DNA of 64,000 bases from Candidatus Pristimantibacillus lignocellulolyticus. Its GTDB lineage: Bacteria > Bacillota > Bacilli > Paenibacillales > Paenibacillaceae. Below the pieces are notes generated by a model. The model searched no databases and had not been told where the DNA came from. It worked only from the letters and a program-made list of their open reading frames with translations. The stretch covers positions 4,136,933-4,200,932 of the forward strand of contig CP097899.1 of the NCBI GenBank assembly GCA_023639215.1, given 5' to 3'. The translations under genes were made by a program, and so were the position numbers. This document shows, piece by piece, positions 48,147 through 63,795 of the stretch; position 1 is the first letter of the stretch; every line of letters begins with the position of its first letter.

Positions 48147-48497
48147 TTACTGTATCTCTAAATAGTCAATGTAAGCATCCCATGTTCCATTATCAGCTGT
48201 GACAATAAGTTCGATCTCTTGATTTCCAGTTCCATGACTGACATTATTTATAGTATAGACTGCTGGATTACTCCCTCCGTAATAGAAGGTACCCTTCAAC
48301 TGTCCACCGATCTTCAAGTCAACTCTGGCCATATTTGAGTTATTCGAAGCACCACGAAGTGAAAAACTATGGGTACCTGTCGTGAAATTTTGTGTGTATT
48401 TTACTGAATCATTGTTAGCGTATAAAGCAACTCCAGTGAACGGCGAACTAATATTACCTGTGTACTGCCCACTTTTCGTCATACTCTCTGCTTCTTT
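48147..48497 (-). repeat. copy 1 of a 351-bp duplicated CBM36-like coding module
   Basis: Matches 49298-49648 with 14 differences by manual count, all synonymous. Confidence 0.9.
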
Positions 48498-49214
48498 TTT
48501 TGTAACTGTAATTGGATTAGTGGTTCCTGTTCCTTCTGGAGCAACCGCTCTCCCTGTGCTCGTAGAGATCATTCCCGAACATAGACCACGGTTCTTAAGG
48601 TTCTGTGAGATCTGCGGAATAGCTTGAAGCGTAGTTTGGTATTGGTCATGCATCAGAATTATGTCACCGTTTTGCAATTGACCAACGGCTGCTACGATCT
48701 GTGCAGTAGTAGCTCCATTCCAATCTTGGGAGTCAACATTCCACAATACTTCAGTAAGACCATTTTGTGCCTGTATGGACCTCAAAGTAGCATTGGTCTC
48801 ACCATAAGGCGGACGGAATAACTTCGGTGCAGCTCCTGTAGCTGCTTGGATTGCTTGTTGTGTCATTGTGATTTGTGAAGACATCTGAGAGCTGTTTAAC
48901 GTAGTCATATGGGGATGAGAATAGGAGTGATTTCCTACCCACATACCAGCAGCCACTTGAGCTTGCACTAATGATGGATTATTTTGGGCGTTTTGCCCAA
49001 GGTTAAACATTGTTGCTCGTAAACCAGCTTGATTCAATGCATTAAGCAGATTTGTCGTATTACTTGCATTGGGTCCATCATCAAATGTCAAACCTACATA
49101 ACCGTTTGGACAGTTTGCATCTGCAGCAATAGCATTAGGCATAAGTGAATTAGAAAATAACGTACCAAAAAGAGCAAACACTGTTAGTACTTTACTTAGT
49201 TTTGAGTTAAACAA
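48147..49214 (-). CDS. secreted CE4 deacetylase (acetyl xylan esterase-like) with C-terminal CBM36-like module
   Basis: Signal peptide; LTFDDGP, GNHSYSHPH, FRPPYG, ILMHD motifs; EAE...YIDY CBM. Confidence 0.85.
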   Translation of the reverse strand: MFNSKLSKVLTVFALFGTLFSNSLMPNAIAADANCPNGYVGLTFDDGPNASNTTNLLNALNQAGLRATMFNLGQNAQNNPSLVQAQVAAGMWVGNHSYSHPHMTTLNSSQMSSQITMTQQAIQAATGAAPKLFRPPYGETNATLRSIQAQNGLTEVLWNVDSQDWNGATTAQIVAAVGQLQNGDIILMHDQYQTTLQAIPQISQNLKNRGLCSGMISTSTGRAVAPEGTGTTNPITVTKKEAESMTKSGQYTGNISSPFTGVALYANNDSVKYTQNFTTGTHSFSLRGASNNSNMARVDLKIGGQLKGTFYYGGSNPAVYTINNVSHGTGNQEIELIVTADNGTWDAYIDYLEIQ

Positions 49215-49297
49215 AATAGGACCTCCTTAAATTTAATTGTAGGTAAACCCTACGAACAAATTCAACCTACTCAACATCGATTGTCGACTTCCAGTTA

Positions 49298-49648
49298 TTA
49301 CTGTATTTCTAAATAATCAATGTAAGCATCCCATGTTCCATTATCAGCTGTAACAATGAGTTCAATCTCTTGATTTCCAGTTCCATGACTGACATTATTT
49401 ATAGTATAGACTGCAGGATTACTTCCTCCGTAATAGAAGGTACCCTTCAACTGTCCACCGATCTTCAAGTCGACTCTAGCCATATTTGAGTTATTCGAAG
49501 CACCTCGAAGTGAAAAACTGTGGGTACCTGTCGTGAAATTTTGTGTGTATTTCACTGAATCATTGTTAGCGTATAAAGCAACCCCAGTGAACGGCGAACT
49601 AATATTACCTGTGTACTGCCCACTTTTCGTCATACTCTCCGCTTCTTT
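49298..49648 (-). repeat. copy 2 of the duplicated CBM36-like coding module
   Basis: Encodes the same 116 C-terminal residues as 48147-48497. Confidence 0.9.
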
Positions 49649-50398
49649 TATGATTCCTGTGCTTGGAGTAGGAGTTGGTGTAGGTGTTGGAGTAGTTCCG
49701 CCGCCGGAATTACCACCAATAGTAAGTGTATTTGTTGTTACATCAGCACTCCCGCTACTTTGATAGCCCTCTACCGTAAGTGCAACTTCATACATCTTAC
49801 CCATTGGCATCCCTAAGCTTTCCCACTTCTTAAAGTGTTCGCTGACAGATATTGTTCCATTTGAGCGTTTAGTTGTTCTTACACTCCAATATTGTTTGAA
49901 TGTTGCAGTACCTATAATTGAGGGTTGATTAGTTCTAGTAGTCTCATATATGTCATATGTCCCTCCGTCTATCGAAATGGAACCCTTTAGTGTGCCTGTT
50001 GGACGATATGTGCCCCAGTTGTCGACAATGTAATATTCTACTAGAGGGTCCTTTGTCCAACCATAAACACATAGATAAGAATTTCCGCCTGGATTGAATG
50101 TTGCATTGTAGTTTATTGATATGTTTCCAAGCTGTGCATGTGTTTTCGTCGAGTCGAACTTCTTGCCTTTACGGAATAACGCATTATTGATGTTACTCCA
50201 CTGGGCACTAAATGCTCCACCACTATTAAGTGTCATACTTGTTGTTCCAGAATCCTTCCATAGCTCATAGTCGTAGCCATCTTGGGTCCCAGTTTGATTG
50301 GAGTTAATCGTAGTTGCCGCCTGTACGATAACTGCGGGGATTGTAAGCGCTAAACAAAGTAAAAGTGTTAAAAATAACCTTATTCTTTTTTGTTTCAT
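49298..50398 (-). CDS. secreted GH11 endo-1,4-beta-xylanase with PT linker and CBM36-like module
   Basis: [18 protein letters not shown] and TVEGYQSSG catalytic Glu motifs; TPTPTP linker. Confidence 0.93.
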
Positions 50399-50495: not shown

Positions 50496-50509
50496 TGAAA
50501 GCGATTACA
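50496..50509. promoter_or_regulatory. cre site (CcpA) upstream of the xylanase
   Basis: TGAAAGCGATTACA matches TGWAANCGNTNWCA. Confidence 0.75.
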
Positions 50510-50725
50510 TAATTAATTTAACAGATATCTTAATAATATTTAAGATGAAAGACTTTAGATAAAATTATAAAAAACTTATATAATTGGTTTAAAATGGAAG
50601 TTATAGTTCATTTGGGAAACCTGTTGCGTTATATCTTTCATTAGATAAAAAAATCGCACATAAGGACAGTCCCTACGTACGATTGATATTATAATTAATT
50701 GTAACAAAATGAAAGAATAAGGCAC

Positions 50726-51805
50726 TTAGGCATTTTCCCATTTCTGTTTGATGAACAGTTCATATACTTTAAGTACAATAATTTTGATGATCATATATAC
50801 AGGAATAATCAATAACATGCCTATGATGCCGGCCAGATCTCCTCCAATTAAGACGATTACGATCGTTGTTATTGGATGGATATCCAACTGTTTACCGAAA
50901 ATATAAGGCGCAATAAGATTATCTTGAATTTGCTGTGCTACGAGAATAATGACAAGAGACCAAATTGCGGTGGACGGCGATTCAATGAATCCGATGATTA
51001 GAATTGGAATAGCCGACAAGATAGCACCGATAAATGGAATAAAGTTCATAATAACAGCCACGACTGTAAGTAACAGTGCATAAGGTAGGCCAATAAAAAG
51101 AAAACCAATGTACATGAGAACTCCAAGTGCTAAATTGATCAGTACTCTGCCGACGATAAAATTACTAAGCGACTGATTAATATCTGTTACGACATCTGTG
51201 GCATCTGATTGAAATCTTTTCGGAGTCAATCTAACCAATTTATCTGAGAATCCACCGCTTTCTTTCAGCATGTAGAACAGAATAACAGGGAATATAAATA
51301 ATACAATTGCGACATTAGAAATAACTGAAAATAGTCCTGTTACATAATTCGTTAATAACGTAACCCCTTTATTCAAGTAATTGGTAATTTGTGTTAAAGG
51401 GCTAACATCTGATGGGAAAAAGTCTGCTAAAAATCCACTTTGCTCAATCTCTTTCAATTGTTCATTCAATGAGTTTAATAAGTTTGGAGCGTTGTTAAAC
51501 AAGTTCAACATTTGCGTACGGGCGGTTGGCCACACCCCAATAAAAAAACCAATCAATAGAAATGCTATAAACAAATAGATTAGTAGAATTGATAAACCTC
51601 GGTTAATTTTTTTCTTTTCCATCCAATTTACTATTGGAAGAAGCAAATAATAGAAAAAAACAGATAACATTAATGGAATCGTTATGTTGGTTACCAACGA
51701 TAAAATCGGTTTAAATACAAAATCAACAAGCGTACCAACATACACGATTGCCAATATCATAAATACAGCAAGACATAATTTAATAAAATGATTAAGCTTT
51801 AACAA
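50726..51805 (-). CDS. AI-2E (PerM) family transporter
   Basis: NFIPFIGAI, QQIQDNLIAPYIFG..L.IHP motifs. Confidence 0.9.
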   Translation of the reverse strand: MLKLNHFIKLCLAVFMILAIVYVGTLVDFVFKPILSLVTNITIPLMLSVFFYYLLLPIVNWMEKKKINRGLSILLIYLFIAFLLIGFFIGVWPTARTQMLNLFNNAPNLLNSLNEQLKEIEQSGFLADFFPSDVSPLTQITNYLNKGVTLLTNYVTGLFSVISNVAIVLFIFPVILFYMLKESGGFSDKLVRLTPKRFQSDATDVVTDINQSLSNFIVGRVLINLALGVLMYIGFLFIGLPYALLLTVVAVIMNFIPFIGAILSAIPILIIGFIESPSTAIWSLVIILVAQQIQDNLIAPYIFGKQLDIHPITTIVIVLIGGDLAGIIGMLLIIPVYMIIKIIVLKVYELFIKQKWENA

Positions 51806-51920
51806 AAAAATTCAACCCCTTATGTGTAACTCGTTACAAAGTAAAATAAAAAAGCATTATATTTTAAGATACAACAATAATGGGCCAGAAGCAAATAGTG
51901 GAAAGAACTATTAACACAAA

Positions 51921-51952
51921 GAAACTGTCAAACTCTAAAGAGTTGACAGTTT
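51921..51952. terminator. terminator closing the NRPS operon
   Basis: gaaactgtcaa / ttgacagtttc inverted repeat downstream of sfp. Confidence 0.6.
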
Positions 51953-51968
51953 CCTCATACATAAAAAT

Positions 51969-52730
51969 TTAATTGAGTTGCGAAGCATCAAGCTCAATCA
52001 ATGCATGGCAATTCCTCGATGTTGTGCAGGTCGTAAGCATATAGTCTGGATCCAACTGGACCTGGTGCAATTTCCAGTTACTTTCCAATTCCCCCGATTC
52101 TACCACCGATTGTATACAGAAAACTTGATCATTCTCGCCGCTCCCTTTAAGTCCAGTTCCAACAGCGATAGGAAAATTGCTAACATTGAGAGCAGTTTTA
52201 ACAACACTGAACGAGTTCAACGGTATGGCCAATCCCTTGCCTAAAGCTTTGATGTAGCTTTCTTTGGCCGTCCAGATCATATTAAACATCCGATCGCGCT
52301 CATGTTCAGGGAGATTAATTAATGTTTCATATTCGGTGCTGGTGAACATAGACTGTGCCAGCTGCAGATCCGCCTTGACCATCTTCTCAATATCGATACC
52401 GATTGCCTCTGAGTGGAAAACTGCCACTGTCCATACACCAGAATGTGAGACATTAAATTGTACTTCATTGCCAAGTAAGATTGGCTTACCGTATTCGTTT
52501 TGAGTAAATATCATCTGATGAACTGGTAATTTGTATTTCTCGCGCAGTACATAATTCACTATCATGTTTCCAGAAAGTGATCGCCATTGATCCTCCCAAT
52601 GCCGAAAACGTGCTACCCGCATTGCTCGTGCAACTGGCACAAGCGCAGACCAGCGCTCAATTCTTTCAAGATTTACTTGAACCGAACAATTATCCATTCG
52701 CACAGCATAAATAGTTGGAACAGACATCAT
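51969..52730 (-). CDS. sfp: Sfp-type 4'-phosphopantetheinyl transferase
   Basis: NEYGKP, FNVSHSG, IGIDIE, WTAKESYIKALGKGL; 4-bp overlap with mbtH. Confidence 0.9.
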   Translation of the reverse strand: MMSVPTIYAVRMDNCSVQVNLERIERWSALVPVARAMRVARFRHWEDQWRSLSGNMIVNYVLREKYKLPVHQMIFTQNEYGKPILLGNEVQFNVSHSGVWTVAVFHSEAIGIDIEKMVKADLQLAQSMFTSTEYETLINLPEHERDRMFNMIWTAKESYIKALGKGLAIPLNSFSVVKTALNVSNFPIAVGTGLKGSGENDQVFCIQSVVESGELESNWKLHQVQLDPDYMLTTCTTSRNCHALIELDASQLN

Positions 52731-52921
52731 ACTTGTCGCAAGCTTAGCGGTGTCAAGTCACACCAGACTTCATTCACGAAAGTCAGGCATTCTGCTTTAG
52801 TACCACTCTTCCCAGCATTACTCCAGCCAGATGGATTATGAAGGTGCAATGGCCATAAAGCGTATTGCTCCTCTGCATTGACAACTACTTTATAGCTGTC
52901 ATCTAGAATTTTGTTCTCCAT
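52727..52921 (-). CDS. mbtH: MbtH-like protein
   Basis: VVVNAEEQYALWP.....PSGW.......K.ECL..V...W.D..PLSL; three conserved Trp. Confidence 0.92.
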   Translation of the reverse strand: MENKILDDSYKVVVNAEEQYALWPLHLHNPSGWSNAGKSGTKAECLTFVNEVWCDLTPLSLRQV

Positions 52922-52947
52922 TTAAAGTATCCTCCCTTATTCATTAA

Positions 52948-55900
52948 TTAGATCCCTGCACCAATTTGGCGATCTGCAAGTTGCTGTAATTGATCTTTAT
53001 TTCGAATAATCACGGCATCAGGCACAGCATCAGGTAAAATTGTCTCCATATAGCGCAATTGTCGATATTTCATACCGAGTAATCCCCAGATGAACAGGAT
53101 GACACCGATCGAAGTGATTAATAGCCCAATGCCCATCCCATCTCCAGTTCCGAATAGTCCTGTGTCCTTAGTTCCTGCTGGCAACGCGGAAGCAAGTGGA
53201 ACGAAAACAGACGCTACAAGTGGTCCTGCAAGAAGGAAACTAAGTGGACGCATGCTGAAAGCCATAACTTGATTCGTTGCCAATACTCGACCTTGTAATT
53301 CAAGTCCTACCTTCGTTTGAATTAATGCAAGCCAGTGCGTATTAATAAGTGCAAGTGCTAGACCAAAGCCGAATAATCCGATGGCTGCAGTCACAAGTGA
53401 AGGATAGATACCTGCAATTGCAATCGATGCACCAGTCAACATAACGAACCCGACCATCCCATCCGCTCTACGGTCAAATCCGCCCCATACTGACATAAGT
53501 ATCGAGCCGATTAATAGTCCTGCACCTTCGAAGGCAATTACAATACCAACTTTGTCAGCGGTCATGAATTGTAGAAGGAACGGTGTCGTTAGTACGTTAT
53601 ATAAGCTCATGAAGAAATTGACAACAATGAAAAACACGACCATTGCGATCAAGCTCTTCCTTTGCATAATATATTTCCAACCTCCAATGATTTCTCTGCT
53701 CATTGGTTCCTCGCGCTTTTTGAACATCAAGTTCGGGAATCGGATCAGCGAGAGAATGACAATTGACAGACTTAATAGTACGAGATCGATAATGACAATT
53801 CTTTGTAGCCCGATCAATACGACTAGAGCTCCTCCAAGTGCAGGCGCCATAATTCCGTTCAAGGACATAACGAGTTGTCCTAATCCGTTCGCGTGTCCCA
53901 AGTACCTCTTTGGTACGAGTTGCGCTGTTGCGGCTTGGTAGGCAGGCATCGTGAAAGCTCCAGCGATTGATCCTATACCTGCAGCTACGTAGATCGCCCA
54001 CAGTGATAATGCGTCCATATAGAACATAGTCGCGATGAAGATACACGAGCATAATGCTAATAACTGACCTACCAACATCACCTTTCGTCTATCATAGCGG
54101 TCCACAACTGCACCTGCGAGAGGTAGCAGCAACAATGTGGGAAGTATTGCATACAGCGATATCGTCGCATAATCTGAAATCGATCCGGAACGTTCGTAAA
54201 CCCATATTCCTAAGGCGAATCCGGTCAATGACGTACCTATTGTGGAAATAATCAAGCACAATGTAACTAATAAAAACGTTTTTATGCTGGGTTTAACGTC
54301 CTTCTGCAACTGCTTCCTTATTTTTACGTGCTCAGTGACTGATGTTGTCTGAGATTCGTTGTTCAAAGAAAAACGTTTTTTTTCTAATTCGTTATCATCA
54401 TCCCACTGACGAATCTGCTGTGATATAATTTTTACGACATGATCTGATTGATGTTTATGAAAATAATGGCCAGCCTGTTCAACGATATGCAATCTCACAT
54501 CATCACTGAAATCCTGCCACTCCAAGTAACGTTCCTCGTAGAACTCAGTCATTCGATCGGCACCGCCGACAATACAAGATACTGGAGCTTTCAGTTTTGG
54601 TTGCTCTGGTAGAGCGTACAAAGCTGTGTAATAATCCTCCGCTTCTCGTACATCATGCCGCAAGTTACGCAGCACGAATTTCTGCTCTTCCGGGGATATT
54701 TCGTCATCGAAACCACCAAAGGCACGGAGCATGTCGCGTGCGAATTTATCGGACGTCCATTTCTCCTGTGGGAATAATCTATGCCACCATTCCGTAAATC
54801 TGAATGGTAGTCTTGTTCCAGGGAAGGTGCCTGCCATAAAGACTCCACTTACCTCTACATTCGCTTCCTGTAGCAAAAGCGCGGTACGAAGTACCATTGC
54901 CCCGCCTAAGCAATGTCCATACAGATAAACTTCACCTTTAACTTTGTTAATGATTTCTTCTGCAATCCGAGCTGAGGTTTCCTCGAGCGACATTAGCAAT
55001 TGACCATCTCTACTGTAATCATGCCCGGGTAGTTCGACGGCAAACAAAGAATAGTTAGGTGGCAACCCTTTAGCCATCGGCTGGAATGTAATCGCGCTAC
55101 CCCCACCGTACGGTACGCATACTAATGTAATAGCTTTGCCTCCGATATTGGATGCCTTCTTAAATTCAATTAGTAAATCATCACTACGCGTGGCTCCTGA
55201 TGAGAGATGCTCTGCTAATTCACGAATTGTCGGATACTGAAAGAGATCCATCACGCTGAATGAATTGCCCATCTTACGTACAACTTTAATCGCCTTGAAC
55301 GAATCACCACCAAGATCAAAAAATTCGTCGGTGACTCCAACCTTATCTAGACCTAGTATCTCACCCCATACTGCAGCAATTTGATGCTCTTCTTTGGTCT
55401 CGGGTGGAATAAATCCGGCATCACCTGCTCGATTTTCGACACTAGGTGCAGGTAACTTAGTACGATCAAGCTTACCGTTTTCGTTAAGCGGTAGCCGTTC
55501 GATCTCGACGAAGGCCGAAGGTAACATATAGTCTGGTAAAATGTTTTTAATATGCTTTCTTATTGCACTTACATCGATCTTAGTTCCAAGCATATCTTGC
55601 TCTTGACTACCATGTGTCAAGTTGTGCTCCCGCACTAGATAGGCAATCAATCGTTTGTCTCCGGGTTCATCTTCACGTATTATTACGACCGCATCGCGTA
55701 TTCCTTCGAACTGCAGGAGGACTTGCTCTATTTCGCCTGTTTCGACACGATAACCTCGAATCTTGACCTGTTGATCCATCCGTCCAATAAATTGAATTGT
55801 TCCGTTTGGCAAATGGCGAACGAGATCACCTGTACGATACATTCTTGAGCCCGGTCGGACTGAAAATGGATTAGGTATAAATCGTTCTGCAGTTAGATCT

Positions 55901-58515
55901 GGCTTACCATAGTAGCCGCGTGTGACTGCGCTACCGCCGATATACAATTCGCCAATGGAACCAGCAGGAACCGGTTGAAGATAAGCGTTAAGCACATACG
56001 CAGGTGCGTTCGGTATAGGACGACCAAGCGGAAGAATCGCTTGATGATCGTTCTCTTTTGCATCAACAGGAACTTCATAAGCTAGCACGGAAACCGTCGT
56101 TTCTGTAGGGCCATAATGATTCTGGATTCTGCAACTAGGATGAAGTCGTCGAATGTCTGCAATTGTTCCCCAATGTGAGGCTTCACCTGCTAGAATTAAA
56201 CATTCGCGAGGTATGATAACGCTCGGATTAGATACGCCTAGAAGTAACTCCATATGACTTGGAACGATCTTCATGACGTCAATCGGATACAACTCGCAAT
56301 ATGCCGCGAAAGCATCGGGATCAGCAGCACGTTCATACGGGATGACATGCAGTGTTCCTCCTGTTGCAAATGCTCCCCAAATCATTGGCGTTCCGAGGTC
56401 GGCAGCAAGCGTGCTGACGATGGCGAAACTCAACTCTTGTTTTAACTTCATACGCTCCATTATGCCATCCAAATAATTGGCATAATTGCTATGCTCAACT
56501 GCTACGCCCTTTGGTTTGCCCGTTGATCCTGAGGTAAACAATACATACATTAGATCTTCCGGTTTCGAGACAACTTCTGGATTACTTGCATCTTCTCTAG
56601 CGATCGCATCCCAGTCCTTGTCGAGTGAAACGGTGCGTAACGATGAAGAATCCGTACTGTCGAATAGTGGCTGTTGATCAGTTATAGAGCTTTCGGTTAC
56701 GATAACCGATACTTCAGCTTCCTGAGCAATCAATCTTAATCTTTCTACTGGTAACTTAGGATCAAGTGGAACATAAGCGCCACCTGCCTTTAAGATGCCG
56801 AGCAAGCCAACGATAATATCGACTGAGCGCTCCATATAAAGACCTACTGTTTGATTAGGTATAACCTTTATTCCTCGCAAATAATGTGCTAGACGATTCG
56901 CCCTTTCATTCAGTTCCAGATAAGTCAGACTAACCCCTTCAGAGCATACGGCTAATGTCATAGGTGTAAGGATTGCTTGTCGCTCAACATTGAGGTGCGG
57001 AAATTGGAACTCCGCCATAGAAGTCTCGACAACATTCCAATCGACGAGAGTTTTTCTTAATTGTTCGCTCGAAAGTGATGCAATTTCATATAAGGGTAAT
57101 TTTGAATTGTTTAATATACGCTCTAAAATATTATTGTACTGGTCTGCCAATTGCTGAATGGTTGACTCGCGGAACAGGTCTACCCTGTACGTCAACGTAA
57201 CATCCATACCTAATTTTTGATTCTCGAATACTGTCATCGTCAGATCCAGCATGCCTCCACGTTTGCCATCGCCCACGAAAGGTACAATTTGGAGTTCAGG
57301 TAGATTAATCATAGACTGACCAATTCTCTCGAACAAAAACATCGTATCGAAGAAAAGTGAATGACCAATTACACGTTCCGGATTCATCTCTTCGACAAGC
57401 CGGTCGAACGGCAAATCCTGATTATCGTTTGCTTCGAGCACTGTGTCTCGGACTTTTGCAATAAAGTCGCTAAAGGTACCACCCATGTCGATTTCGGAAC
57501 GCAGCGCAACTGTGTTGGCAAAGAAACCAACTAGCTTCTCTATTTCCTGCTTACCTCGATTCGCCATAGGCGTCCCAATGACAATTTCTTGCTTGCCATT
57601 ATAGCTCGCTAGAAGTACTTTATAAGCAGCTAGTAAAAGGACGAACGAGGTGCAACCGAGCTGTTTACTCGTTTCACGGATACGCTGTGAGAATGAAGGA
57701 TCGAGAGTCAAGCTGTAGAAACCGGCTTTGCGTTCACTTTGAATAGCGGGGCGCGGATAATCTGTTGGAAGATCAAGTGTTGCTGGTGCTGGTGTCAGTT
57801 TCTTCTTCCAGTAATCGAGCTGATCTTCGTATTCTGATCCTGTCATCCATTGCCTCTGCCAAACGGCAAAGTCCGGATATTGAATCGGTAGTTCTGGTAG
57901 AGACAATGGCTCATCTAGCGTGATAGAGCGATAGATCGTGGCAAGTTCTACGTCGAACACTTCGGCTGACCATCCGTCATAGATTAAGTGATGTGTCATC
58001 CAGACTAGGATATGCATTTCCGAATCAAGACGGAAAAGCATCGCTTTCACAAGCGGACCATTCAGAAAATCATAAGGTGCCGTTGATTCTTTGTCGATGA
58101 GCTCATAAACTTTATTTTCATCTTTCAACTCAATTATAGGTAGGTCGATTATCATCTGAGGACGAATCATCTGCACGTAATCATCGTTCTCGTAAGCAAT
58201 GACAGCACGCATAATTTCATGGCGCTTAATTATCTCGTTCAATGTTCTATGCAGAGCTGGAATGTTAAGTTCACCAATCAGTTTATAGCCGTTAGCAAAG
58301 TTATATCTCGATGTTCCAGGCATATACTCTTCGAAAAACATAATTCGCTGCTGTGGAAACGATAATGGGAACTTGTTCTCACCAGCTGGCCTTTGCTGTT
58401 TCGGAATAATAGCGGATTCTGCAGCAGCTTTTGCCTTCTGCTGCCTAGCCTTCATCGCAAGGAGAGCTCGGCGTTCAGGTGACAATTGTTCGAGTCGGTC
58501 AATTGTTTTAGTCAT
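52948..58515 (-). CDS. NRPS C-A-PCP-TE fused to a C-terminal DHA3-type MFS exporter (1855 aa)
   Basis: HHLIYDG C domain (H175), TSGSTGKPKG and YGPTE A domain, LGGDS PCP (S1072), GHCLG TE (C1202), then about 430 aa multi-TM MFS with GAVVDRYDRRKV motif; one open frame in the ORF track. Confidence 0.9.
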   Translation of the reverse strand: MTKTIDRLEQLSPERRALLAMKARQQKAKAAAESAIIPKQQRPAGENKFPLSFPQQRIMFFEEYMPGTSRYNFANGYKLIGELNIPALHRTLNEIIKRHEIMRAVIAYENDDYVQMIRPQMIIDLPIIELKDENKVYELIDKESTAPYDFLNGPLVKAMLFRLDSEMHILVWMTHHLIYDGWSAEVFDVELATIYRSITLDEPLSLPELPIQYPDFAVWQRQWMTGSEYEDQLDYWKKKLTPAPATLDLPTDYPRPAIQSERKAGFYSLTLDPSFSQRIRETSKQLGCTSFVLLLAAYKVLLASYNGKQEIVIGTPMANRGKQEIEKLVGFFANTVALRSEIDMGGTFSDFIAKVRDTVLEANDNQDLPFDRLVEEMNPERVIGHSLFFDTMFLFERIGQSMINLPELQIVPFVGDGKRGGMLDLTMTVFENQKLGMDVTLTYRVDLFRESTIQQLADQYNNILERILNNSKLPLYEIASLSSEQLRKTLVDWNVVETSMAEFQFPHLNVERQAILTPMTLAVCSEGVSLTYLELNERANRLAHYLRGIKVIPNQTVGLYMERSVDIIVGLLGILKAGGAYVPLDPKLPVERLRLIAQEAEVSVIVTESSITDQQPLFDSTDSSSLRTVSLDKDWDAIAREDASNPEVVSKPEDLMYVLFTSGSTGKPKGVAVEHSNYANYLDGIMERMKLKQELSFAIVSTLAADLGTPMIWGAFATGGTLHVIPYERAADPDAFAAYCELYPIDVMKIVPSHMELLLGVSNPSVIIPRECLILAGEASHWGTIADIRRLHPSCRIQNHYGPTETTVSVLAYEVPVDAKENDHQAILPLGRPIPNAPAYVLNAYLQPVPAGSIGELYIGGSAVTRGYYGKPDLTAERFIPNPFSVRPGSRMYRTGDLVRHLPNGTIQFIGRMDQQVKIRGYRVETGEIEQVLLQFEGIRDAVVIIREDEPGDKRLIAYLVREHNLTHGSQEQDMLGTKIDVSAIRKHIKNILPDYMLPSAFVEIERLPLNENGKLDRTKLPAPSVENRAGDAGFIPPETKEEHQIAAVWGEILGLDKVGVTDEFFDLGGDSFKAIKVVRKMGNSFSVMDLFQYPTIRELAEHLSSGATRSDDLLIEFKKASNIGGKAITLVCVPYGGGSAITFQPMAKGLPPNYSLFAVELPGHDYSRDGQLLMSLEETSARIAEEIINKVKGEVYLYGHCLGGAMVLRTALLLQEANVEVSGVFMAGTFPGTRLPFRFTEWWHRLFPQEKWTSDKFARDMLRAFGGFDDEISPEEQKFVLRNLRHDVREAEDYYTALYALPEQPKLKAPVSCIVGGADRMTEFYEERYLEWQDFSDDVRLHIVEQAGHYFHKHQSDHVVKIISQQIRQWDDDNELEKKRFSLNNESQTTSVTEHVKIRKQLQKDVKPSIKTFLLVTLCLIISTIGTSLTGFALGIWVYERSGSISDYATISLYAILPTLLLLPLAGAVVDRYDRRKVMLVGQLLALCSCIFIATMFYMDALSLWAIYVAAGIGSIAGAFTMPAYQAATAQLVPKRYLGHANGLGQLVMSLNGIMAPALGGALVVLIGLQRIVIIDLVLLSLSIVILSLIRFPNLMFKKREEPMSREIIGGWKYIMQRKSLIAMVVFFIVVNFFMSLYNVLTTPFLLQFMTADKVGIVIAFEGAGLLIGSILMSVWGGFDRRADGMVGFVMLTGASIAIAGIYPSLVTAAIGLFGFGLALALINTHWLALIQTKVGLELQGRVLATNQVMAFSMRPLSFLLAGPLVASVFVPLASALPAGTKDTGLFGTGDGMGIGLLITSIGVILFIWGLLGMKYRQLRYMETILPDAVPDAVIIRNKDQLQQLADRQIGAGI

Positions 58516-59920
58516 AGAGCACCTCCGTCAAAGGCAATTGTTGATTGTTAAGTTGACGCTGTAAAAGCCTCTGCGCGAGCAAAGAACGCTTGTTGGAATT
58601 AAGTGCCTCATTGTTTACATCTAGACGATGATCCGCTAACGAGACTACGCTTTGTAAGAGCTGCTCCTGCTTTGCTGCCATATAATCTACACTCAATTGA
58701 TCCGATTCAATGGCGTTGCTTCTCCTACCAATGACCGATTCAATAGCTGTACATGCCATTGTCATCGTATCATGTTCTGCCAAGGCCTTAGCTAACTGAC
58801 GACAGCGCTCCTTCACCGCATTTGTCTGGATGGTTTTTATAGTATTAGCGATCAATGTTGGTTCCCACTGCATCGGCGGTAAATAATCGCCGATACCGAG
58901 TTGTTTAATCCGCCTTCCGTTATCTGGTCGATCCGTATCGGCTGCGAGCGCTAGCTGTGGTACCGCTGCAGTCATCGCTCCGGTAATTGTTCCAATCCCG
59001 CCATGGTGAATCACGCCGCTGACTAGTGGATAGACACTGGCAAGTGGCAGAATCTTGTACCAGCGAATATGATCTGGAAGCTCGCCTTGAATGAATTCTT
59101 CATGTCTTGTAACCAGAATCGTTCGCTGACCTGACAATTTGACACCTTCAATCGCAGCCTGGTAGAAGTTCGGTTTAATCATTTTGCCTGTCCCACCTGT
59201 AATCAAAAGCGGCTTCTCGCCTGACTGGATAAAATCTAGTAAATCGATTGGCAATGGCTCGTATTCGATCTCATCTGCGAGTGGGAAACCTACTGTTTCC
59301 ACCTTCAGCGCCCAATCTGGAGTTTCGACTGCTGCATCAAAACTCTCATGCCAGAAACCGATGTTTTTCTTCACAGCTCCCATCCACGATGTCCAATTCG
59401 ATACCGGAGTAAGTCCTAGATCGTTCCGGAAAGTATTAATACTTGATATTCCGAAGTCCAGTCCAAGTTCCTCCCAGATATGCAGCTGCGTTACATAGCT
59501 TGGTGCCAGTATTGCGGAGACGATAGGTACTTGCATAATTTCAGACACGATCATTGCTACATAACCGTCACGATCCCTACAAATGAGTACGGAATCTTCT
59601 TCTTGGCAAAGCTCTGTTATGATGTCATACTCGTGTTGGAATTTTTCCTTTGTATAATACTTGCGTTGGTAATCTTCATAGAGTTCAGGCTTATTCAGCG
59701 GATCCTCGATCATGGAAAGATCTTTCATGATCTCTGTATATTCCTCTGGTTTATCGATCCCACGAAATGCGATACCTGACTTCTCGGCAAGTTGTGAAAA
59801 CACACCGTGTGTCACCAGAGTTGCCTTATGTCCGCGGCGACGAAGTGCAGAAGCCAACCGTAGGAACGGGAGTACATCTCCGTTCGTCATATGCGTGCTA
59901 AGAACGAAATTTGCCAACAA
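58508..59920 (-). CDS. GT1 family glycosyltransferase with C-terminal extension
   Basis: GDVLPF...LRRRGH N-terminal motif, HHGGIGT...AAVPQL...DRPDNGRR nucleotide-sugar motif; 8-bp overlap with the NRPS start. Confidence 0.88.
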   Translation of the reverse strand: MLANFVLSTHMTNGDVLPFLRLASALRRRGHKATLVTHGVFSQLAEKSGIAFRGIDKPEEYTEIMKDLSMIEDPLNKPELYEDYQRKYYTKEKFQHEYDIITELCQEEDSVLICRDRDGYVAMIVSEIMQVPIVSAILAPSYVTQLHIWEELGLDFGISSINTFRNDLGLTPVSNWTSWMGAVKKNIGFWHESFDAAVETPDWALKVETVGFPLADEIEYEPLPIDLLDFIQSGEKPLLITGGTGKMIKPNFYQAAIEGVKLSGQRTILVTRHEEFIQGELPDHIRWYKILPLASVYPLVSGVIHHGGIGTITGAMTAAVPQLALAADTDRPDNGRRIKQLGIGDYLPPMQWEPTLIANTIKTIQTNAVKERCRQLAKALAEHDTMTMACTAIESVIGRRSNAIESDQLSVDYMAAKQEQLLQSVVSLADHRLDVNNEALNSNKRSLLAQRLLQRQLNNQQLPLTEVLYD

Positions 59921-59947
59921 CTTTCCCCTCCTTTCGTCTAATGATTG

Positions 59948-61813
59948 TCACTTCAGTAACGCCTCGATTTCTGCTTCTGATAGATGTTCCATTTCGCTCA
60001 ATAACGCTTCGAGTTCGGCATCGTCGGTGTCGGCAAGTAAATTCGTTTCTATGATCGCAGCAAGTGAGCGAATTGTCGTTCCTTGTGTAAGCATGTCTTT
60101 TAGAGATACTTTCACACCAAATAGATGTCCACAGCGGACAAGTATTTGAGTTGCTACGAGCGAATGACCGCCCAAATCAATAAAATTGTCATCAAGTCCG
60201 ATTTCATCAAAATTGAAAAATCCAGACCAGATCTGAGCAAGCTCTTTCTGAATGTAAGTCTGTGGTGGAACATATTCTTGACTGATCATGAGGCGTGACA
60301 CAGTTGGACTCGGTAATAGTTTCCGGTCTGTCTTGCCACTTGGGGTTAGTGGGAATGTCTCCATCTCAATAAAATAAGAAGGAATCATATAGTCGGGTAA
60401 ATGCTTCTGTAGATAATTTCTTAACTCGCTAATAGATGGAGAATATACAGGGTTAGGGATGAAATAAGTTGTGATGCGCTGGTCTCCGGGTTGATCTTCA
60501 CGAACGACAGTTACGACTTGATTGACGCCTGGATGTTGTTCAAGTACATTGCTAATCTCACCTAACTCGATACGGAAGCCCCGTACCTTTACTTGATCAT
60601 CGTTTCGACCTAAACATTCAAGATTCCCGTCACTGAGCCAGCGTCCAAGATCTCCGGTATGGTACATACGTGATCCCGGTTCTTTGCTATACAGATCGGG
60701 TACGAATCGCTCGGCAGTCAGATCCGGTCTGCCGTGATAGCCACGTGCAAGTCCGATACCACTGATAAAGAGTTCTCCGATTTCACCTTGACTGACCTGT
60801 TCATATCGGTCGTTTAGGACGTACACTTCGTCATCAGAAATAGCCTTACCAATCGGAATTATAGATCGTTCAAGGTTACGGTCGCTAGTCCAACTCGTTA
60901 CAAATACCGCTGCCTCTGTTGGGCCATACAGATTGTGGAGTTGTCCAGACATTGTGCTGCAGAAGCGTTCGTTCAGCGCTGCAGATAAAGGCTCCCCACA
61001 TAAGAAAACATGCTTCAGAAGAGGGAGATCTTCGGATAGGTCTGAGCTTAAAAAGGTCTGGAGCATCGTTGGCACGAACTGTACAAATGTAATTGACTCA
61101 CGTTTCATAACATCCCACAAATATGAGGTATCAAGATGCCCTTGGGGCTTAGCCATAATGAGACTTGCACCACACATATGAGGCCAGAAAAATTCCCATA
61201 CCGAAACGTCAAAACTATAAGGAGATTTCTGAAGAAGTCTATCGTTTTGCGTCATTAGGAAGGTAGATTGTAGCCAGAGAACTCTGTTACGTATGGCAGC
61301 ATGTGTATTCATTGCGCCTTTAGGTTTGCCGGTTGATCCTGAGGTATAGAACATGTAAGCTAGATTGTTTTCATCTAAAGTGATATTAAGATTTCCTTGC
61401 TCTTCTCGATATCCTTCCGATGATTCTACTTCATCTAAAATCAGTACATCGGCGTCAAACTCATCCAGTAGTTCTGAAAATTGACGCTGCGTAATTACAA
61501 GTCTTACGTCGCTATCATTAATCATATAAGCAAGTCGATCCTTCGGATAATCCGGATCTAACGGTACGTACGCACCCCCTGCCTTCAATACAGCGTAAAG
61601 TGCAACAACCATTTCAATCGAACGCTCCATAGATATTCCTACTAGAATGTCTGGTCCGACACGAAGCGACCTTAACCGATACGCTAGTAAATTTGCGCGA
61701 CGGTTCAACTCGTCGTAAGTTACGGACTTCCCCTCGAATCTAACGGCTTCTTCATTGGGTGTACGTTCTGTTTGTTGCTCAAACAACTGGTGAATCAAAT
61801 TTTTCACCTGCAT
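59948..61813 (-). CDS. standalone NRPS loading module A-PCP
   Basis: YTSGSTGKPKG, YGPTE, YHTGDLGRW, SGKTDR A10 Lys, LGGHS PCP (S551), acidic C-terminal tail. Confidence 0.92.
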   Translation of the reverse strand: MQVKNLIHQLFEQQTERTPNEEAVRFEGKSVTYDELNRRANLLAYRLRSLRVGPDILVGISMERSIEMVVALYAVLKAGGAYVPLDPDYPKDRLAYMINDSDVRLVITQRQFSELLDEFDADVLILDEVESSEGYREEQGNLNITLDENNLAYMFYTSGSTGKPKGAMNTHAAIRNRVLWLQSTFLMTQNDRLLQKSPYSFDVSVWEFFWPHMCGASLIMAKPQGHLDTSYLWDVMKRESITFVQFVPTMLQTFLSSDLSEDLPLLKHVFLCGEPLSAALNERFCSTMSGQLHNLYGPTEAAVFVTSWTSDRNLERSIIPIGKAISDDEVYVLNDRYEQVSQGEIGELFISGIGLARGYHGRPDLTAERFVPDLYSKEPGSRMYHTGDLGRWLSDGNLECLGRNDDQVKVRGFRIELGEISNVLEQHPGVNQVVTVVREDQPGDQRITTYFIPNPVYSPSISELRNYLQKHLPDYMIPSYFIEMETFPLTPSGKTDRKLLPSPTVSRLMISQEYVPPQTYIQKELAQIWSGFFNFDEIGLDDNFIDLGGHSLVATQILVRCGHLFGVKVSLKDMLTQGTTIRSLAAIIETNLLADTDDAELEALLSEMEHLSEAEIEALLK

Positions 61814-62445
61814 TCAATCACTCCTTTTCTTGTGTAGTAAATAGTAGAAATTACATATATTGTATAAATCAAGCTGCATCATCATTATAGTGAGCAGCTA
61901 ATCAAAGTGTCAATATTTATGTTAAATTGAAAAAAAAGTATTCAATGAGTCCAACAAAAAAGATTCTTCTCGTTACCAAGTACATAAAAAGTAGCCGCAT
62001 ACTTTCATAATGTTGTTTCTAGTGATATCTAATTCTTCTTTTATCGGTTTTATCTGTTCTGCTGAATTACATCCAGACAAAATAACAAAATCTATAACAA
62101 GTTAAGACGATAAAAACGTTTTTATTAAATCTTTTCTCATAAGTGTTCCTCACTTTATTAAGTTTAGATTTTTTAAACTATTCGGTAAATTGCATGAATA
62201 TCCTTCACGAGATGACATTTCACTATCCATGGCATCTATCAACTAGTGATATCTATCAATACTTGATATTAGTTGAAAATGATAGAAATAGGTATTCCGC
62301 TTAGCTCATGCAAGGATGCATGTACATACAATACAAATGAATAGATAAGTCGCATAAAGATGGAGGATGAGAACGATGAGCTATGTTTAATAGAAAGATT
62401 AATAAATAGAGAGAGAAAAAATCTATGCGAATAGAGGTTAAGTTA

Positions 62446-63795
62446 ATGCACAATGTTATGATTGCCCTCACCATTATTACCTTTTTGTGTACCATCTCTT
62501 TCATATTCTGGCGTCCCAATGTAAACGAGGCTATACCAGCAACTATTGGTGCATTTTTCATTTTTCTTATCGGCAGTGTCACATTAACTGATCTAGGTGT
62601 AATAACCGAAACAATTGGCGGTGCTGCAGTCACCATAATAGCAACAATCGTCATGGCCATCGTATTAGAAAGTTTTGGATTCTTTCATTGGAGTGCAAAC
62701 AAGTTGTTAGAACTAGCAAAGGGTTCAGGTATTCGATTGTTCTGGTTAACCAACCTTCTTTGTTTTTTAATGACCCTCTTCGTTAACAATGATGGTAGCA
62801 TATTAATTACCACACCGATTCTAATGATGTTGCTTCATAATATCGGACTAAAAAATCATCAGAAAATCCCATATTTATTGTCAGGAGCATTGATAGCGAC
62901 GGCTTCAAGTGCACCAATCGGAGTTAGTAATATTGTCAATTTGATTGCTTTGAAAATTGTTCACATGGATCTTTACATGCACACAGCTATGATGTTCGTG
63001 CCTGCTACTTTAGGTCTTCTCCTCCTTGCTCTCTTGTTATTTGCTTACTTTTACCGTGTCCTTCCTCGAAAGTTACCTGAAGCAAAAAGATTCTCACCTC
63101 ATGCTTCCGAAAAAGGATATCATCCATTAAAAGAAGTCAAACCGCTTATTCCGCATGAAAAACAAACCAAGTTTATGATTTATATATTAATTTTTGTTTT
63201 TATAGTTCGGGTGAGTCTCTTCGTAGCTTCCTACATCCACTTTCCGGTCCCTTTAATGGCAGTAATCGGTTCTATCTTCTTGCTAACTTGGCGTTGGATT
63301 TACTTGAAAATCCCTCCAACCGATATGTTGAAGAAGACCCCTTGGTATATTCTTGTGTTTGCTTTTAGTATGTATGTCATTATTTATGGTTTGCATAATA
63401 TTGGCTTAACCCAAATGCTCATAAGCTTTTTTCAACCGATAATATCGGGTGATTTACTTCAAGCGAGTGTCATGATGGGGATACTCGTGTCGATTCTTTC
63501 AAATTTATTCAATAACCATCCTGCTTTAATGGTTGGAACACTTACCTTAACGAATATGAATCTCGAGCCCCTTACACTAAAAATATCATATCTAGCAAGT
63601 GTCATTGGTAGTGATATTGGTTCACTCCTTTTACCAATTGGAACTCTTGCAACGTTGATGTGGATGCATATTGTTAAGAAAGGTAAAGTGAAAATAAGTT
63701 GGGGCGATTATTTGAAAGTGACTTCCGTCGTCATTCCAATCACGGTGGTTATCACTTTGGTTATTTTGTATTACTGGGTATCATGGTTATTTTAG
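62446..63795 (+). CDS. ArsB/NhaD family membrane transporter (YwrK-like)
   Basis: LFVNNDGSILITTP, SSAPIGVSNIVN, NLFNNHPA, GSDIG..LLPIGTLATLMW; start at ATG 62446 behind GAGGT. Confidence 0.82.
   Translation: MHNVMIALTIITFLCTISFIFWRPNVNEAIPATIGAFFIFLIGSVTLTDLGVITETIGGAAVTIIATIVMAIVLESFGFFHWSANKLLELAKGSGIRLFWLTNLLCFLMTLFVNNDGSILITTPILMMLLHNIGLKNHQKIPYLLSGALIATASSAPIGVSNIVNLIALKIVHMDLYMHTAMMFVPATLGLLLLALLLFAYFYRVLPRKLPEAKRFSPHASEKGYHPLKEVKPLIPHEKQTKFMIYILIFVFIVRVSLFVASYIHFPVPLMAVIGSIFLLTWRWIYLKIPPTDMLKKTPWYILVFAFSMYVIIYGLHNIGLTQMLISFFQPIISGDLLQASVMMGILVSILSNLFNNHPALMVGTLTLTNMNLEPLTLKISYLASVIGSDIGSLLLPIGTLATLMWMHIVKKGKVKISWGDYLKVTSVVIPITVVITLVILYYWVSWLF

Follow-up and report, generated by a model that had tools for sequence, protein, structure and literature searches.

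A compact five-gene NRPS operon with a candidate docking tail on its glycosyltransferase and a thioesterase fused to a predicted exporter

Operon structure and genomic setting

What would an NRPS operon with two A domains, a glycosyltransferase and a fused exporter make, and at which point would the sugar be added? The operon that raises this question lies in a stretch of 64,000 nucleotides of Candidatus Pristimantibacillus lignocellulolyticus DNA (the window), for which the earlier note had proposed a glycosylated, exported product of dipeptide scale. That proposal is partly supported: as far as architecture goes (a pair of A domains, an intact C domain, a glycosyltransferase and a fused exporter) its core holds, and the rival explanations weighed below fit no better; the chemistry of the product is predicted. 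The elements of the operon are as follows.

61884 to 61913, minus strand: sigma-A type promoter, TTGACA-18-TATAAT (12/12 of the sigma-70 consensus)
59948 to 61813, minus strand: A-PCP loading protein, 621 aa (Pfam AMP-binding 2.3e-90, PP-binding 2.2e-12)
58508 to 59920, minus strand: GT1-family glycosyltransferase, 470 aa, TTG start (Pfam EryCIII-like_C and Glyco_transf_28)
52948 to 58515, minus strand: C-A-PCP-TE-MFS protein, 1855 aa (Pfam Condensation, AMP-binding, PP-binding, Thioesterase, MFS_1/MFS_3)
52727 to 52921, minus strand: MbtH-like protein, 64 aa (PF03621 2.3e-18, 65.8 bits against a cut-off of 27)
51969 to 52730, minus strand: Sfp-type 4'-phosphopantetheinyl transferase (PPTase), 253 aa (ACPS PF01648, 62.1 bits against 25; AASDHPPT_N PF22624)
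51915 to 51959, minus strand: intrinsic terminator 3' of the PPTase gene (hairpin and U-rich tract)

The five open reading frames occupy positions 61813 to 51969 of the minus strand and are joined, in gene order, by a gap of 27 nt, an overlap of 8 nt, a gap of 26 nt and an overlap of 4 nt. ORF, Pfam and hairpin analyses thus agree with the layout described in the earlier note (coordinates, single strand, short gaps and overlaps, and a terminator after sfp). Pfam scores of all five genes lie well over the curated cut-offs, and Pfam and NCBIfam together recovered the A, PCP, C and terminal TE domains of a modular (type I) NRPS. The nearest NCBIfam models of the PPTase, AusB and HetI, both fell under cut-off. 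The promoter precedes the ATG start codon of the A-PCP gene by about 70 nt, and this codon has the ribosome-binding site AAAAGGAG. The terminator hairpin (-22.7 kcal/mol, z = -6.15) was matched in stability by 0 of 200 shuffled sequences and is followed by the U-rich tract UUUGUGUU. Pfam analysis of the operon ORFs revealed no regulator and no further tailoring gene between promoter and terminator, as the earlier note had stated.

A transporter gene lies on either side of the operon, one of the AI-2E type and the other, which is divergent, of the ArsB/CitMHS type (Pfam). Its GC content (44.5%, against 37.8% for the genome) falls in the top 1.2% of windows, and in the genomes of relatives the operon is found in differing gene contexts. 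We consider it probably self-contained and horizontally acquired. At about 10 kb, and with its own PPTase and MbtH genes, it is among the smallest complete examples of Cys-TE-MFS loci.

The loading protein

Three segments of the A-PCP protein are relevant to the identity and handling of the first residue.

about 60332 to 61783, minus strand: A domain (specificity code DVWQFCLVFK)
about 60053 to 60244, minus strand: PCP domain (GGHSL serine)
59951 to 60034, minus strand: acidic C-terminal tail, a putative docking element, DTDDAELEALLSEMEHLSEAEIEALLK

This code and that of the terminal A domain, DLPKIAHVSK, had been derived by hand in the earlier note, and alignment gave the same result; the PCP serine motifs GGHSL and GGDSF were read in the translations. 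The loading A domain matches the Ser-activating SolG and EntF models of NCBIfam strongly and falls inside the Ser-code clade of the A-domain tree. Ser is bound by His278 and Asp331, and Gly-type codes are marked by Gln278 together with an aromatic residue at 331. When aligned with the Ser code, the pocket reads Gln for His278, Cys for Ser301 and Phe for Asp331. By its sequence, the domain is of Ser-clade ancestry, has lost the Ser-binding His278/Asp331 pair and has gained the Gly-type Gln278 and aromatic 331. Its inferred substrate is small: Gly, Ala or a Ser-like residue. An acidic C-terminal helix was present on all A-PCP proteins listed from loci of the glycosyltransferase type, in both Bacillota and Chloroflexota.

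The glycosyltransferase and its putative docking tail

The second gene encodes an enzyme that can be divided into a catalytic core and an extension.

58730 to 59920, minus strand: GT-B core, residues 1-397 (AlphaFold model)
58547 to 58597, minus strand: basic helix in the tail, residues about 442-458, a putative docking element, NSNKRSLLAQRLLQRQL

The AlphaFold model (pLDDT 85.6, pTM 0.82) shows a confident GT-B fold, and the donor and base motifs of the enzyme are conserved. Its best folds in Foldseek were the sterol glucosyltransferase UGT51 (E 2.5e-21), GtfA/B/D (GtfD 1e-19) and CalG1, and the motifs TH.T.GDV.PF and HHGG.GT...PQ...DRP.N were invariant among 15 homologs. With the NCBIfam models for the MGT and Rgt subfamilies, the enzyme scores under cut-off. 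It shares with the vancomycin-group Gtf enzymes, CalG1 and UGT51 the fold, the GDV.P base motif and the HHGG.GT donor motif. However, these relatives take free aglycones as acceptors and have no docking tail, whereas the enzyme of the operon carries an extra extension of about 70 residues with a putative docking helix of NRPS type. It also has D-R in the donor motif where D-Q is usual, so that its sugar donor may be unusual. The general statement of the earlier note that GT1 enzymes glycosylate small molecules understated the case, given this putative assembly-line docking tail.

In the AlphaFold model the tail helix is separate from the core and of low pLDDT; it is similar to the N-terminal helix of the NRPS. 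With an HMM trained on NRPS N-termini only and searched against the 2629 ORFs of the genome of at least 250 aa, the GT1 enzyme ranked 7th of 2629, with the match located in the tail and a weak score (3.1-3.2 bits). The GT4 enzyme of a paralogous cluster in the same genome ranked 2nd. Although GT1 and GT4 have no mutual sequence similarity, the enzymes of both families in these clusters terminate in a basic helix like the one with which the downstream NRPS begins. Matched terminal helices are acidic on the C-termini of loaders and basic on the C-termini of glycosyltransferases and the N-termini of NRPSs, and their binding is putative. Natural GT1-C and GT4-C fusions were also found, in one of which (P0119) the linker between glycosyltransferase and C domain contains the same basic motif.

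The identity of the first residue covaries with the family of glycosyltransferase. GT4 enzymes occur with a Tyr code in 16/16 loci and GT1 enzymes with small, Gln278-type codes in 12/12, while the code of the last residue is constant (Asp/Asn-like, DL.K type) in 32/32 loci that contain a glycosyltransferase. Because the glycosyltransferase tracks residue 1 and the last residue does not change, the pattern points to glycosylation of the carrier-bound first residue, and the GT1 enzyme probably acts there rather than on a free product. Two GT1-type relatives (L032 and L012) have a canonical Gly loader code. Gly offers no side-chain acceptor, so in these loci the enzyme would either modify the alpha-amine, for which there is little precedent among GT1 enzymes, or act elsewhere.

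These Gly-type loaders, the weak HMM score of the GT1 tail and the use of free acceptors by all of the closest structural relatives (GtfA/B/D, CalG1, OleD and UGT51) speak for a rival order of events, in which the NRPS makes a plain dipeptide and the glycosyltransferase acts on it, unbound, in the cytoplasm. The sugar would then serve as ordinary tailoring or, ahead of export, as self-protection of the OleD type, and the tail motif would be a leftover of gene fusion and fission. We regard such glycosylation off the assembly line as unlikely. The tail has been retained in two unrelated glycosyltransferase folds and across phyla, the family of the enzyme tracks residue 1, fusions of glycosyltransferases to C domains exist, and Pfam found no gene in the operon for an extracellular glycosidase that could reactivate the product. 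Moreover, fusion of the TE to the exporter makes a free cytoplasmic intermediate unlikely.

The terminal protein: condensation, release and export

The 1855-aa protein would join the two residues, release the product and expel it.

58438 to 58494, minus strand: N-terminal helix
57058 to 58380, minus strand: C domain
55471 to 56985, minus strand: A domain (code DLPKIAHVSK)
55204 to 55383, minus strand: PCP domain
54415 to 55128, minus strand: TE domain
54910 to 54912, 54556 to 54558 and 54466 to 54468, minus strand: TE triad Cys1202, Asp1320 and His1350 (alignment with ObiF1)
53077 to 54285, minus strand: MFS domain
52951 to 53076, minus strand: conserved cytoplasmic tail

The C domain has an intact HHLIYDG motif (residue 175), and the A code is predicted to be Asp/Asn-like. 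The best PDB match of the TE, ahead by 16 orders of magnitude, was the beta-lactone-forming TE of ObiF1, the obafluorin NRPS (PDB 6n8e), whose triad Cys1146/Asp1254/His1284 (PMC6668435) aligns with that of the operon residue for residue. The triad was invariant in an alignment of seven TE-MFS sequences (A1), and the Cys was conserved in every TE-MFS homolog checked. ObiF1 and SulM, the sulfazecin NRPS (PMC11298585), also have a terminal C-A-PCP-TE acting on a chain of di- or tripeptide size and an MbtH partner, and in all three proteins the TE uses Cys as nucleophile and has its catalytic Asp in 'position II', behind strand beta7, as type II thioesterases do. The terminal codes differ: Phe-like in ObiF1 (PMC6668435), a Dap code (DVWEMNADDK) in SulM and Asp/Asn-like in the operon, whose code does not predict a beta-hydroxy or beta-amino building block of the ObiF1 or SulM kind. 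Pfam found no ObiH-type aldolase, SulG/H or sulfotransferase gene in the operon, and the Gln-Cys-Asn motif of SulM is absent from its TE, which reads G-H-C-L-G-G (His-Cys-Leu). Some TE-MFS relatives have terminal codes of Gly, Cys or Ser type, so no single chemistry of the Cys-TE is obvious.

Neither ObiF1 nor SulM is fused to an MFS domain, as the TE of the operon is. The domain has 12 TM segments, an N-in topology and the motif A DRYDRRK, and scores over cut-off with Pfam MFS_1 (100.6 bits) and MFS_3 (67.2 bits). Its best matches are DHA3 and EntS-type exporters (PF05977; TIGR00900 at 3.5e-55 and 187.8 bits, against a cut-off of 319.6), from which export is predicted as the direction of transport. 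In logic alone, and with different chemistry and substrates and no claim of sequence relationship, the arrangement resembles MprF, the aminoacyl-phosphatidylglycerol synthase-flippase, in which a cytoplasmic biosynthetic domain is joined to the translocator of its product.

By the same analogy with MprF, or with LplT-Aas fusions, the Cys-TE could pass its glycopeptidyl cargo to an acceptor in the membrane, for example a lysolipid or a lipid-linked precursor, presented or flipped by the MFS domain. A match of that domain to PRK08633, a model of the LplT-Aas fusion, in its MFS portion (1.6e-36), the suitability of a Cys acyl-enzyme for transfer to poor nucleophiles, and the position of the paralogous cluster beside LytR-CpsA-Psr and VanY genes are consistent with such envelope modification. 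However, the exporter matches are better, the neighbouring genes vary among genomes, and the patchy distribution and atypical GC content suit an accessory metabolite better; we judge the idea quite improbable. A siderophore or oligomer, in which an iterative TE in the style of enterobactin or bacillibactin would join dipeptide units and an IroB-like enzyme would glycosylate them, is highly improbable: the C-A-PCP-TE layout is superficially EntF-like, the MFS is of the EntS family, MbtH and PPTase lie within the operon and the loading A domain matches the EntF Ser-domain model, but Pfam found no aryl-acid A domain or ArCP in the operon, there is no convincing Fur box in a promoter region that is unconserved among orthologs, the Cys-type TE is of the ObiF1/type II-like and not the EntF class, the EntF model scores 363.9 bits where its cut-off is 2400, and the loading pocket lacks the Ser-binding residues.

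A model of glycosylation on the assembly line

The reading that we favour, with slightly better than even confidence, is that the operon is self-contained and makes a small glycosylated peptide by tailoring on the assembly line, TE release and fused export. The A-PCP protein would load the small residue, and the basic C-terminal helix of the GT1 enzyme would dock on its acidic tail, so that the carrier-bound residue is glycosylated. The NRPS would then dock by the corresponding helix at its own N-terminus and, through its C domain, link the glycosyl-aminoacyl unit with the Asp/Asn-like residue. The dipeptide would pass to Cys1202 of the TE, be released, and be exported at once by the covalently fused MFS domain. 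If release is tied to export, tailoring must occur on the assembly line, which would account for the docking tail of the glycosyltransferase.

A more specific version, which we hold to be rather unlikely, makes of this a machine that tailors on line, releases and expels a glycosylated dipeptide with an electrophilic warhead. Stand-alone glycosyltransferases of two unrelated folds would each have gained an NRPS docking helix and would glycosylate the carrier-bound amino acid, in Gly-type clusters perhaps at the alpha-amine. The ObiF1-like Cys-TE, positioned where the MFS pump fused to it opens to the cytoplasm, would convert the conserved Asp/Asn-like C-terminal residue (or a Ser-like one, if the narrowed pocket has shifted) to a reactive ring, for instance a succinimide, anhydride or beta-lactone, that must exit the cell immediately.

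We know of very few cases in which a carrier-bound NRPS intermediate is glycosylated and of none in which a trans-acting glycosyltransferase is recruited by a docking helix, and text searches were empty. If the model is confirmed, the glycosyltransferase tail would offer engineered assembly lines a portable handle for on-line sugar addition.

Relatives and a paralogous cluster

The earlier note had recognised no Bacillales NRPS of this architecture, a point that the comparison with relatives corrects. The same five-gene operon, with the MbtH gene, is present in Paenibacillus algorifonticola, P. endoradicis, P. luteus, P. oryzae and P. paridis, and orthologs of the 1855-aa protein in named Paenibacillus species are 83-85% identical. 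The genome collection that was searched contains 350 relatives of the Cys-TE-MFS end module, spread over species genomes from several phyla. The architecture is thus not unique to the operon, and by sequence the module is one that NCBI has already named: 'non-ribosomal peptide synthetase/MFS transporter' proteins, such as those of Paenibacillus endoradicis and Paenibacillus sp. MMS18-CY102, are likewise C-A-PCP-TE(Cys)-MFS, at 48-85% identity. Literature text searches covering about 8.4 million papers returned no paper, experimental work or product for the Cys-TE-MFS family. Small, complete and furnished with PPTase and MbtH genes of its own, the operon offers a practical entry point to the role of the TE-MFS fusion.

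Nothing indicated that distant genes supply further modules, a proviso of the earlier note; yet the paralogous cluster (G000:C1:4123344-4132070) lies 66 kb away and has putative docking tails of the same type. It encodes A-PCP, GT4 and C-A-PCP-TE-MFS proteins and has no adjacent PPTase or MbtH gene, so that cross-talk with the operon is possible. This cluster and that of Herpetosiphon aurantiacus DSM 785 share the gene order, putative docking tails and type of terminal A code of the operon, but have a Tyr loader (DASTVAAVCK) and GT4 in place of GT1. One genome therefore holds two paralogous clusters with a common last residue and TE-MFS and with different loaders and glycosyltransferase folds, a natural swap experiment on the matching of glycosyltransferase and residue 1.

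Organization of the operon

The five genes described in the earlier note were recovered at the coordinates first proposed, all on the minus strand, and every domain is supported by Pfam, with scores well over the curated cut-offs and concordant NCBIfam matches.

Features of the operon (window positions)
61913-61884, minus strand: promoter TTGACA-18-TATAAT, a perfect consensus match
61813-59948, minus strand: A-PCP protein (the loader), 621 aa
59920-58508, minus strand: glycosyltransferase (GT1), 470 aa
58515-52948, minus strand: C-A-PCP-TE-MFS protein (the NRPS), 1855 aa
52921-52727, minus strand: MbtH-like protein, 64 aa
52730-51969, minus strand: Sfp-type PPTase, 253 aa

Gaps of 27 nt and 26 nt separate the genes at the first and third junctions, those at the second and fourth overlap by 8 nt and 4 nt, and the first ATG of the operon is preceded by a good ribosome-binding site. 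The terminator that had been called after sfp was borne out, with a hairpin of -22.7 kcal/mol (z = -6.2) and then a U-rich tract located 3' of the last stop. Neither a regulator nor an extra tailoring gene lies within the operon, as had also been claimed, and it is flanked by genes for an AI-2E transporter and, in divergent orientation, an ArsB/CitMHS transporter. An Rfam scan of 50500-63000 revealed no riboswitch, leader or other known RNA element, returning only two sub-threshold chance matches. To look for a Fur or other operator, we aligned the sequence upstream of eight Paenibacillus-type orthologs and of the more distant homologous locus L032, and no convincing Fur box emerged. GTCAT repeats (e.g., GGTCATT..AGCATTAGCGC) occur around the promoter, upstream of A-PCP, in loci L016, L019, L021, L022, L023 and L056. 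The upstream region of the window is without the repeats common to these orthologs and has the consensus sigma-A promoter instead, which suggests that the operon may be regulated differently from its orthologs.

A widespread family of TE-MFS proteins

The earlier note recognised no Bacillales NRPS of this architecture, a view that must be revised: the architecture is widespread and the TE-MFS fusion is already named in the database, where the P. endoradicis homolog appears at NCBI as 'non-ribosomal peptide synthetase/MFS transporter'. A search with a TE-MFS alignment recovered 350 relatives in species-representative genomes. We examined the loci of 80 of these, calling domains by phmmer with the domains of the window as references. 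The loci belong to Paenibacillaceae, other Bacillota, Herpetosiphon and other Chloroflexota, and furthermore to Kitasatospora, Embleya, Streptomyces, Micromonospora, Streptosporangium, Nonomuraea, two Vibrio species and a SAR324 genome bin. Clusters of Bacillota and Herpetosiphon follow the layout A-PCP / one or two GTs / (C-A-PCP)n-TE-MFS, those of Vibrio have three C-A-PCP modules, and those of Kitasatospora and Embleya consist of A-PCP-C-A-PCP / C-A-PCP-TE-MFS, with no GT detected and a tyrosinase gene adjoining the cluster. The locus of Kitasatospora hibisci (L096, 5004-17487), for example, encodes A(Cys-like DIYNNALVYK)-PCP-C-A(Gly)-PCP and then C-A(DLTKIAHVSK)-PCP-TE-MFS, has no GT, and continues with the tyrosinase gene and a 167-aa ORF. 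In two GT4-type loci of Paenibacillus algorifonticola (L087, 3163-5331; L093, 3155-5326) the loader measures 723 aa and carries a PCP at its C-terminal end, along with the usual acidic tail; its N-terminal 620 residues are without a Pfam match and may represent an unrecognised loading enzyme.

The kinds of component are all known (NRPS, GT1, MFS, MbtH and Sfp). New here are a terminal module that is constant family-wide, a correspondence between GT fold and residue 1, and a putative docking tail common to two unrelated GT folds. Literature searches, within the library used, found no paper on the NRPS-MFS fusion, the operon, docking-tailed GTs, on-line glycosylation or the specificity codes.

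A paralogous cluster in the genome

Six condensation domains were found when the whole genome was scanned. One belongs to a paralogous cluster that lies beyond the window, about 66 kb away from the operon (G000:C1:4123344-4132070 on the genome contig; L015 7345-16071, minus strand). Its A-PCP protein (631 aa) is 36% identical to that of the window and carries the Tyr code DASTVAAVCK, and its C-A-PCP-TE(Cys)-MFS protein (1837 aa) is 39% identical to the window NRPS over the full length. Its glycosyltransferase (438 aa) is of family GT4, with no detectable similarity to the window GT1. MbtH and PPTase genes are absent beside this cluster, and consequently the Sfp enzyme of the window may serve both. 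TetR and SDR genes lie downstream of the paralog, and LytR-CpsA-Psr and VanY genes upstream. The co-occurrence of the two types recurs in P. algorifonticola and Paenibacillus sp. MMS18-CY102, each with one GT1-type and one GT4-type cluster. A larger NRPS locus about 190 kb from the operon, likewise beyond the window (G000:C1:4389129-4406369), encodes four C domains, its open frames being 4015 aa and 1798 aa long.

Adenylation domains and predicted substrates

Codes were read after MAFFT alignment, for which positions verified by hand served as anchors. The terminal code DL[TPSI]KIA[HNY]VSK, or a close variant, is shared by 68 of 81 terminal modules and spans three phyla; all 32 GT-containing loci have a code of this type. 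In the tree of A domains the sister group of this terminal clade carries the Asn code DLTKVGEVGK. The presence of Lys278 and His322 suggests a substrate with an acidic or amide side chain, and the pocket is predicted to be shallower than usual since Ala301 and Ser331 replace the customary glycines. Asp would be our first guess and Asn the second, with some chance that specificity has shifted to a smaller polar residue.

The loader code DVWQFCLVFK nests among Ser-code domains in the same tree, and the Ser-activating models SolG and EntF both give the loader a high score. Its pocket has lost His278, Ser301 and Asp331 and gained Gln278 and an aromatic residue at 331, the last two being characteristic of Gly codes. 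Loaders of other GT1-type clusters carry DVWQIALIFK, DVTQAGFIFK, DILQMGMVWK and the canonical Gly code DILQLGLIWK. We estimate that residue 1 in the window is small, with Gly foremost at just under an even chance, and Ala and Ser level with each other at less than half of that.

Proposed glycosylation of the first residue

The GT1 core (residues 1-397) was modelled confidently as a GT-B fold (pLDDT 85.6, pTM 0.82), with UGT51, GtfA/B/D and CalG1 as best structural matches. The enzyme is probably active, because the motifs TH.T.GDV.PF and HHGG.GT...PQ...DRP.N are invariant in 15 homologs. Its sugar-binding pair (58928-58942, GT residues 327-331) is Asp-Arg (DTDRPDN) and not the usual Asp-Gln; the pair hardly varies within the family and may indicate an unusual, perhaps acidic, sugar donor.

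GT family and residue 1 vary together while the terminal residue stays constant: GT4 accompanies a Tyr loader code in 16 of 16 loci, and GT1 accompanies small loader codes of the Gln278 type in 12 of 12. A sugar on the constant terminal residue is thereby disfavoured, since the pairing would then have no reason. A second line of evidence comes from the protein termini. Past its core the GT1 has a tail of about 70 residues with the terminal helix NSNKRSLLAQRLLQRQ, to be compared with LSPERRALLAMKARQQ, with which the NRPS downstream begins. The natural GT1-C fusion P0119 (GT1-C-A-PCP-TE-MFS) carries the same motif as LTPEKRALLALMVRR in its GT-C linker, a GT4-C-A-PCP fusion occurs in a Thermoflexales genome, and in the paralog, Herpetosiphon, Fontibacillus and several genome bins the GT4 enzymes, though unrelated to GT1, terminate in this motif as well (e.g., LSPEKRQQLLAVLQERR, LPAEQRALLAQRLKQRR). 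All loader proteins in turn have a C-terminal acidic helix of the type ELE.LL.ELE.LS.EE..ALL. A docking-helix HMM, built from NRPS N-termini only and run on all 2629 ORFs of the genome of at least 250 aa, ranked the NRPS first, the paralog GT4 second (19.7 bits) and the window GT1 seventh (3.2 bits, with the match in the tail). The best match falls near the C-terminal end in 29 of 35 cluster GTs. Note that the HMM score of the window GT1 is weak by itself, and its tail is a putative docking element by virtue of position and recurrence.

Given the covariation, the putative docking tails and the GT-C fusions, the best reading is that residue 1 would be glycosylated on the carrier protein. In Tyr-type clusters the obvious acceptor is the phenol. 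In the window cluster the candidate acceptor depends on residue 1: a Ser would offer its side-chain oxygen, whereas Gly or Ala would leave the alpha-amine, on which a GT1 enzyme would act only by unusual chemistry.

The thioesterase and the question of ring formation

The TE nucleophile is a Cys (GHCLGG, Cys1202) in the window, in the paralog and in every homolog checked, one of which reads GQCVGG. The nearest solved structure is the TE of ObiF1 (E 1.3e-31), followed by a type II thioesterase (1.5e-15), and Cys1202/Asp1320/His1350 align with ObiF1 Cys1146/Asp1254/His1284 once the PDB chain numbering is corrected by a 20-residue offset. ObiF1 is the beta-lactone-forming obafluorin synthetase (PMC6668435), and this 'position II' triad is common to ObiF1, the sulfazecin synthetase SulM and type II thioesterases (PMC6668435, PMC11298585). 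Ring-forming chemistry does not follow automatically from such a triad, because the terminal pocket is basic and Asp/Asn-like, the operon is without precursor genes, and a minority of the TE-MFS family has terminal codes of Gly-, Cys- or Ser-type. We rejected a Dap/beta-lactam reading since SulM has an acidic Dap code (DVWEMNADDK) whereas the pocket here is basic (DLPKIAHVSK). The Gly-type terminal codes of some members weaken beta-lactone formation as a general function of Cys-TE-MFS proteins, and the A-domain code of ObiF1 is Phe-like, in contrast to the Asp/Asn-like code of the window. In the boldest reading, which seems to us a minority prospect, the Cys-TE would make a reactive C-terminal ring needing immediate expulsion.

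The MFS domain and the proposed path

A hydropathy scan gave 12 TM segments in the MFS domain, with motif A (DRYDRRK) between TM2 and TM3, a positively charged central loop and the N-terminus inside; about 45 residues link it to the TE, and the predicted topology fits fusion to a cytoplasmic TE. An acidic cytoplasmic tail after TM12 (RxMExILPDAxPDxxIxxDKDxLQxLAD; 52951-53076, NRPS residues 1814-1855) ends the protein in all family members, several of its residues being invariant across phyla.

We propose that the loader would take up a small residue, to which docked GT1 would add a sugar on the PCP. The NRPS would then dock, condensation with an Asp/Asn-like residue would follow, and the dipeptide would pass to Cys1202 and be released, the fused MFS domain presumably moving it outward. 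We hold this path, taken whole, to be slightly better than evenly likely. Its domains, motifs, operon structure, conservation across the family and covariation are observed; the sequence of steps, the docking, the substrates and the outward transport are inferred. Glycosylation might instead be off-line or self-protective, which we think unlikely; with the TE fused to the pump, any modification of the product must precede release. Among known families the MFS domain best matches exporters of the DHA3 and EntS type; an MprF- or LplT-Aas-like transfer onto a membrane acceptor is improbable, and an iterative siderophore-like product slightly more so.

Distribution and possible horizontal transfer

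Named homologs assign the window to Paenibacillus: the 1855-aa protein is 85% identical to its P. endoradicis counterpart and 83% to that of P. algorifonticola. Of 24 other species of the genus whose genomes were sampled, only four had orthologs of the GT (at least 75% identity). The GC content of 51969-61813 is 44.5%, in the top 1.2% of same-size windows (genome mean 37.8%, SD 2.0%), and that of the paralog cluster is 42.3%. The genes that flank the operon are situated elsewhere in the genomes of relatives. Their AI-2E and CitMHS genes are adjacent in none, but these relatives are too distant (about 60-78% amino-acid identity) for an empty site to be recognised. The scarcity of GT orthologs, the raised GC and the differing flanks fit an accessory, horizontally moving cluster. 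Just past the AI-2E transporter gene, 48147-50398 encodes a GH11 xylanase and a CE4 polysaccharide deacetylase that bears a CBM6 module, both of which appear unrelated to the cluster.
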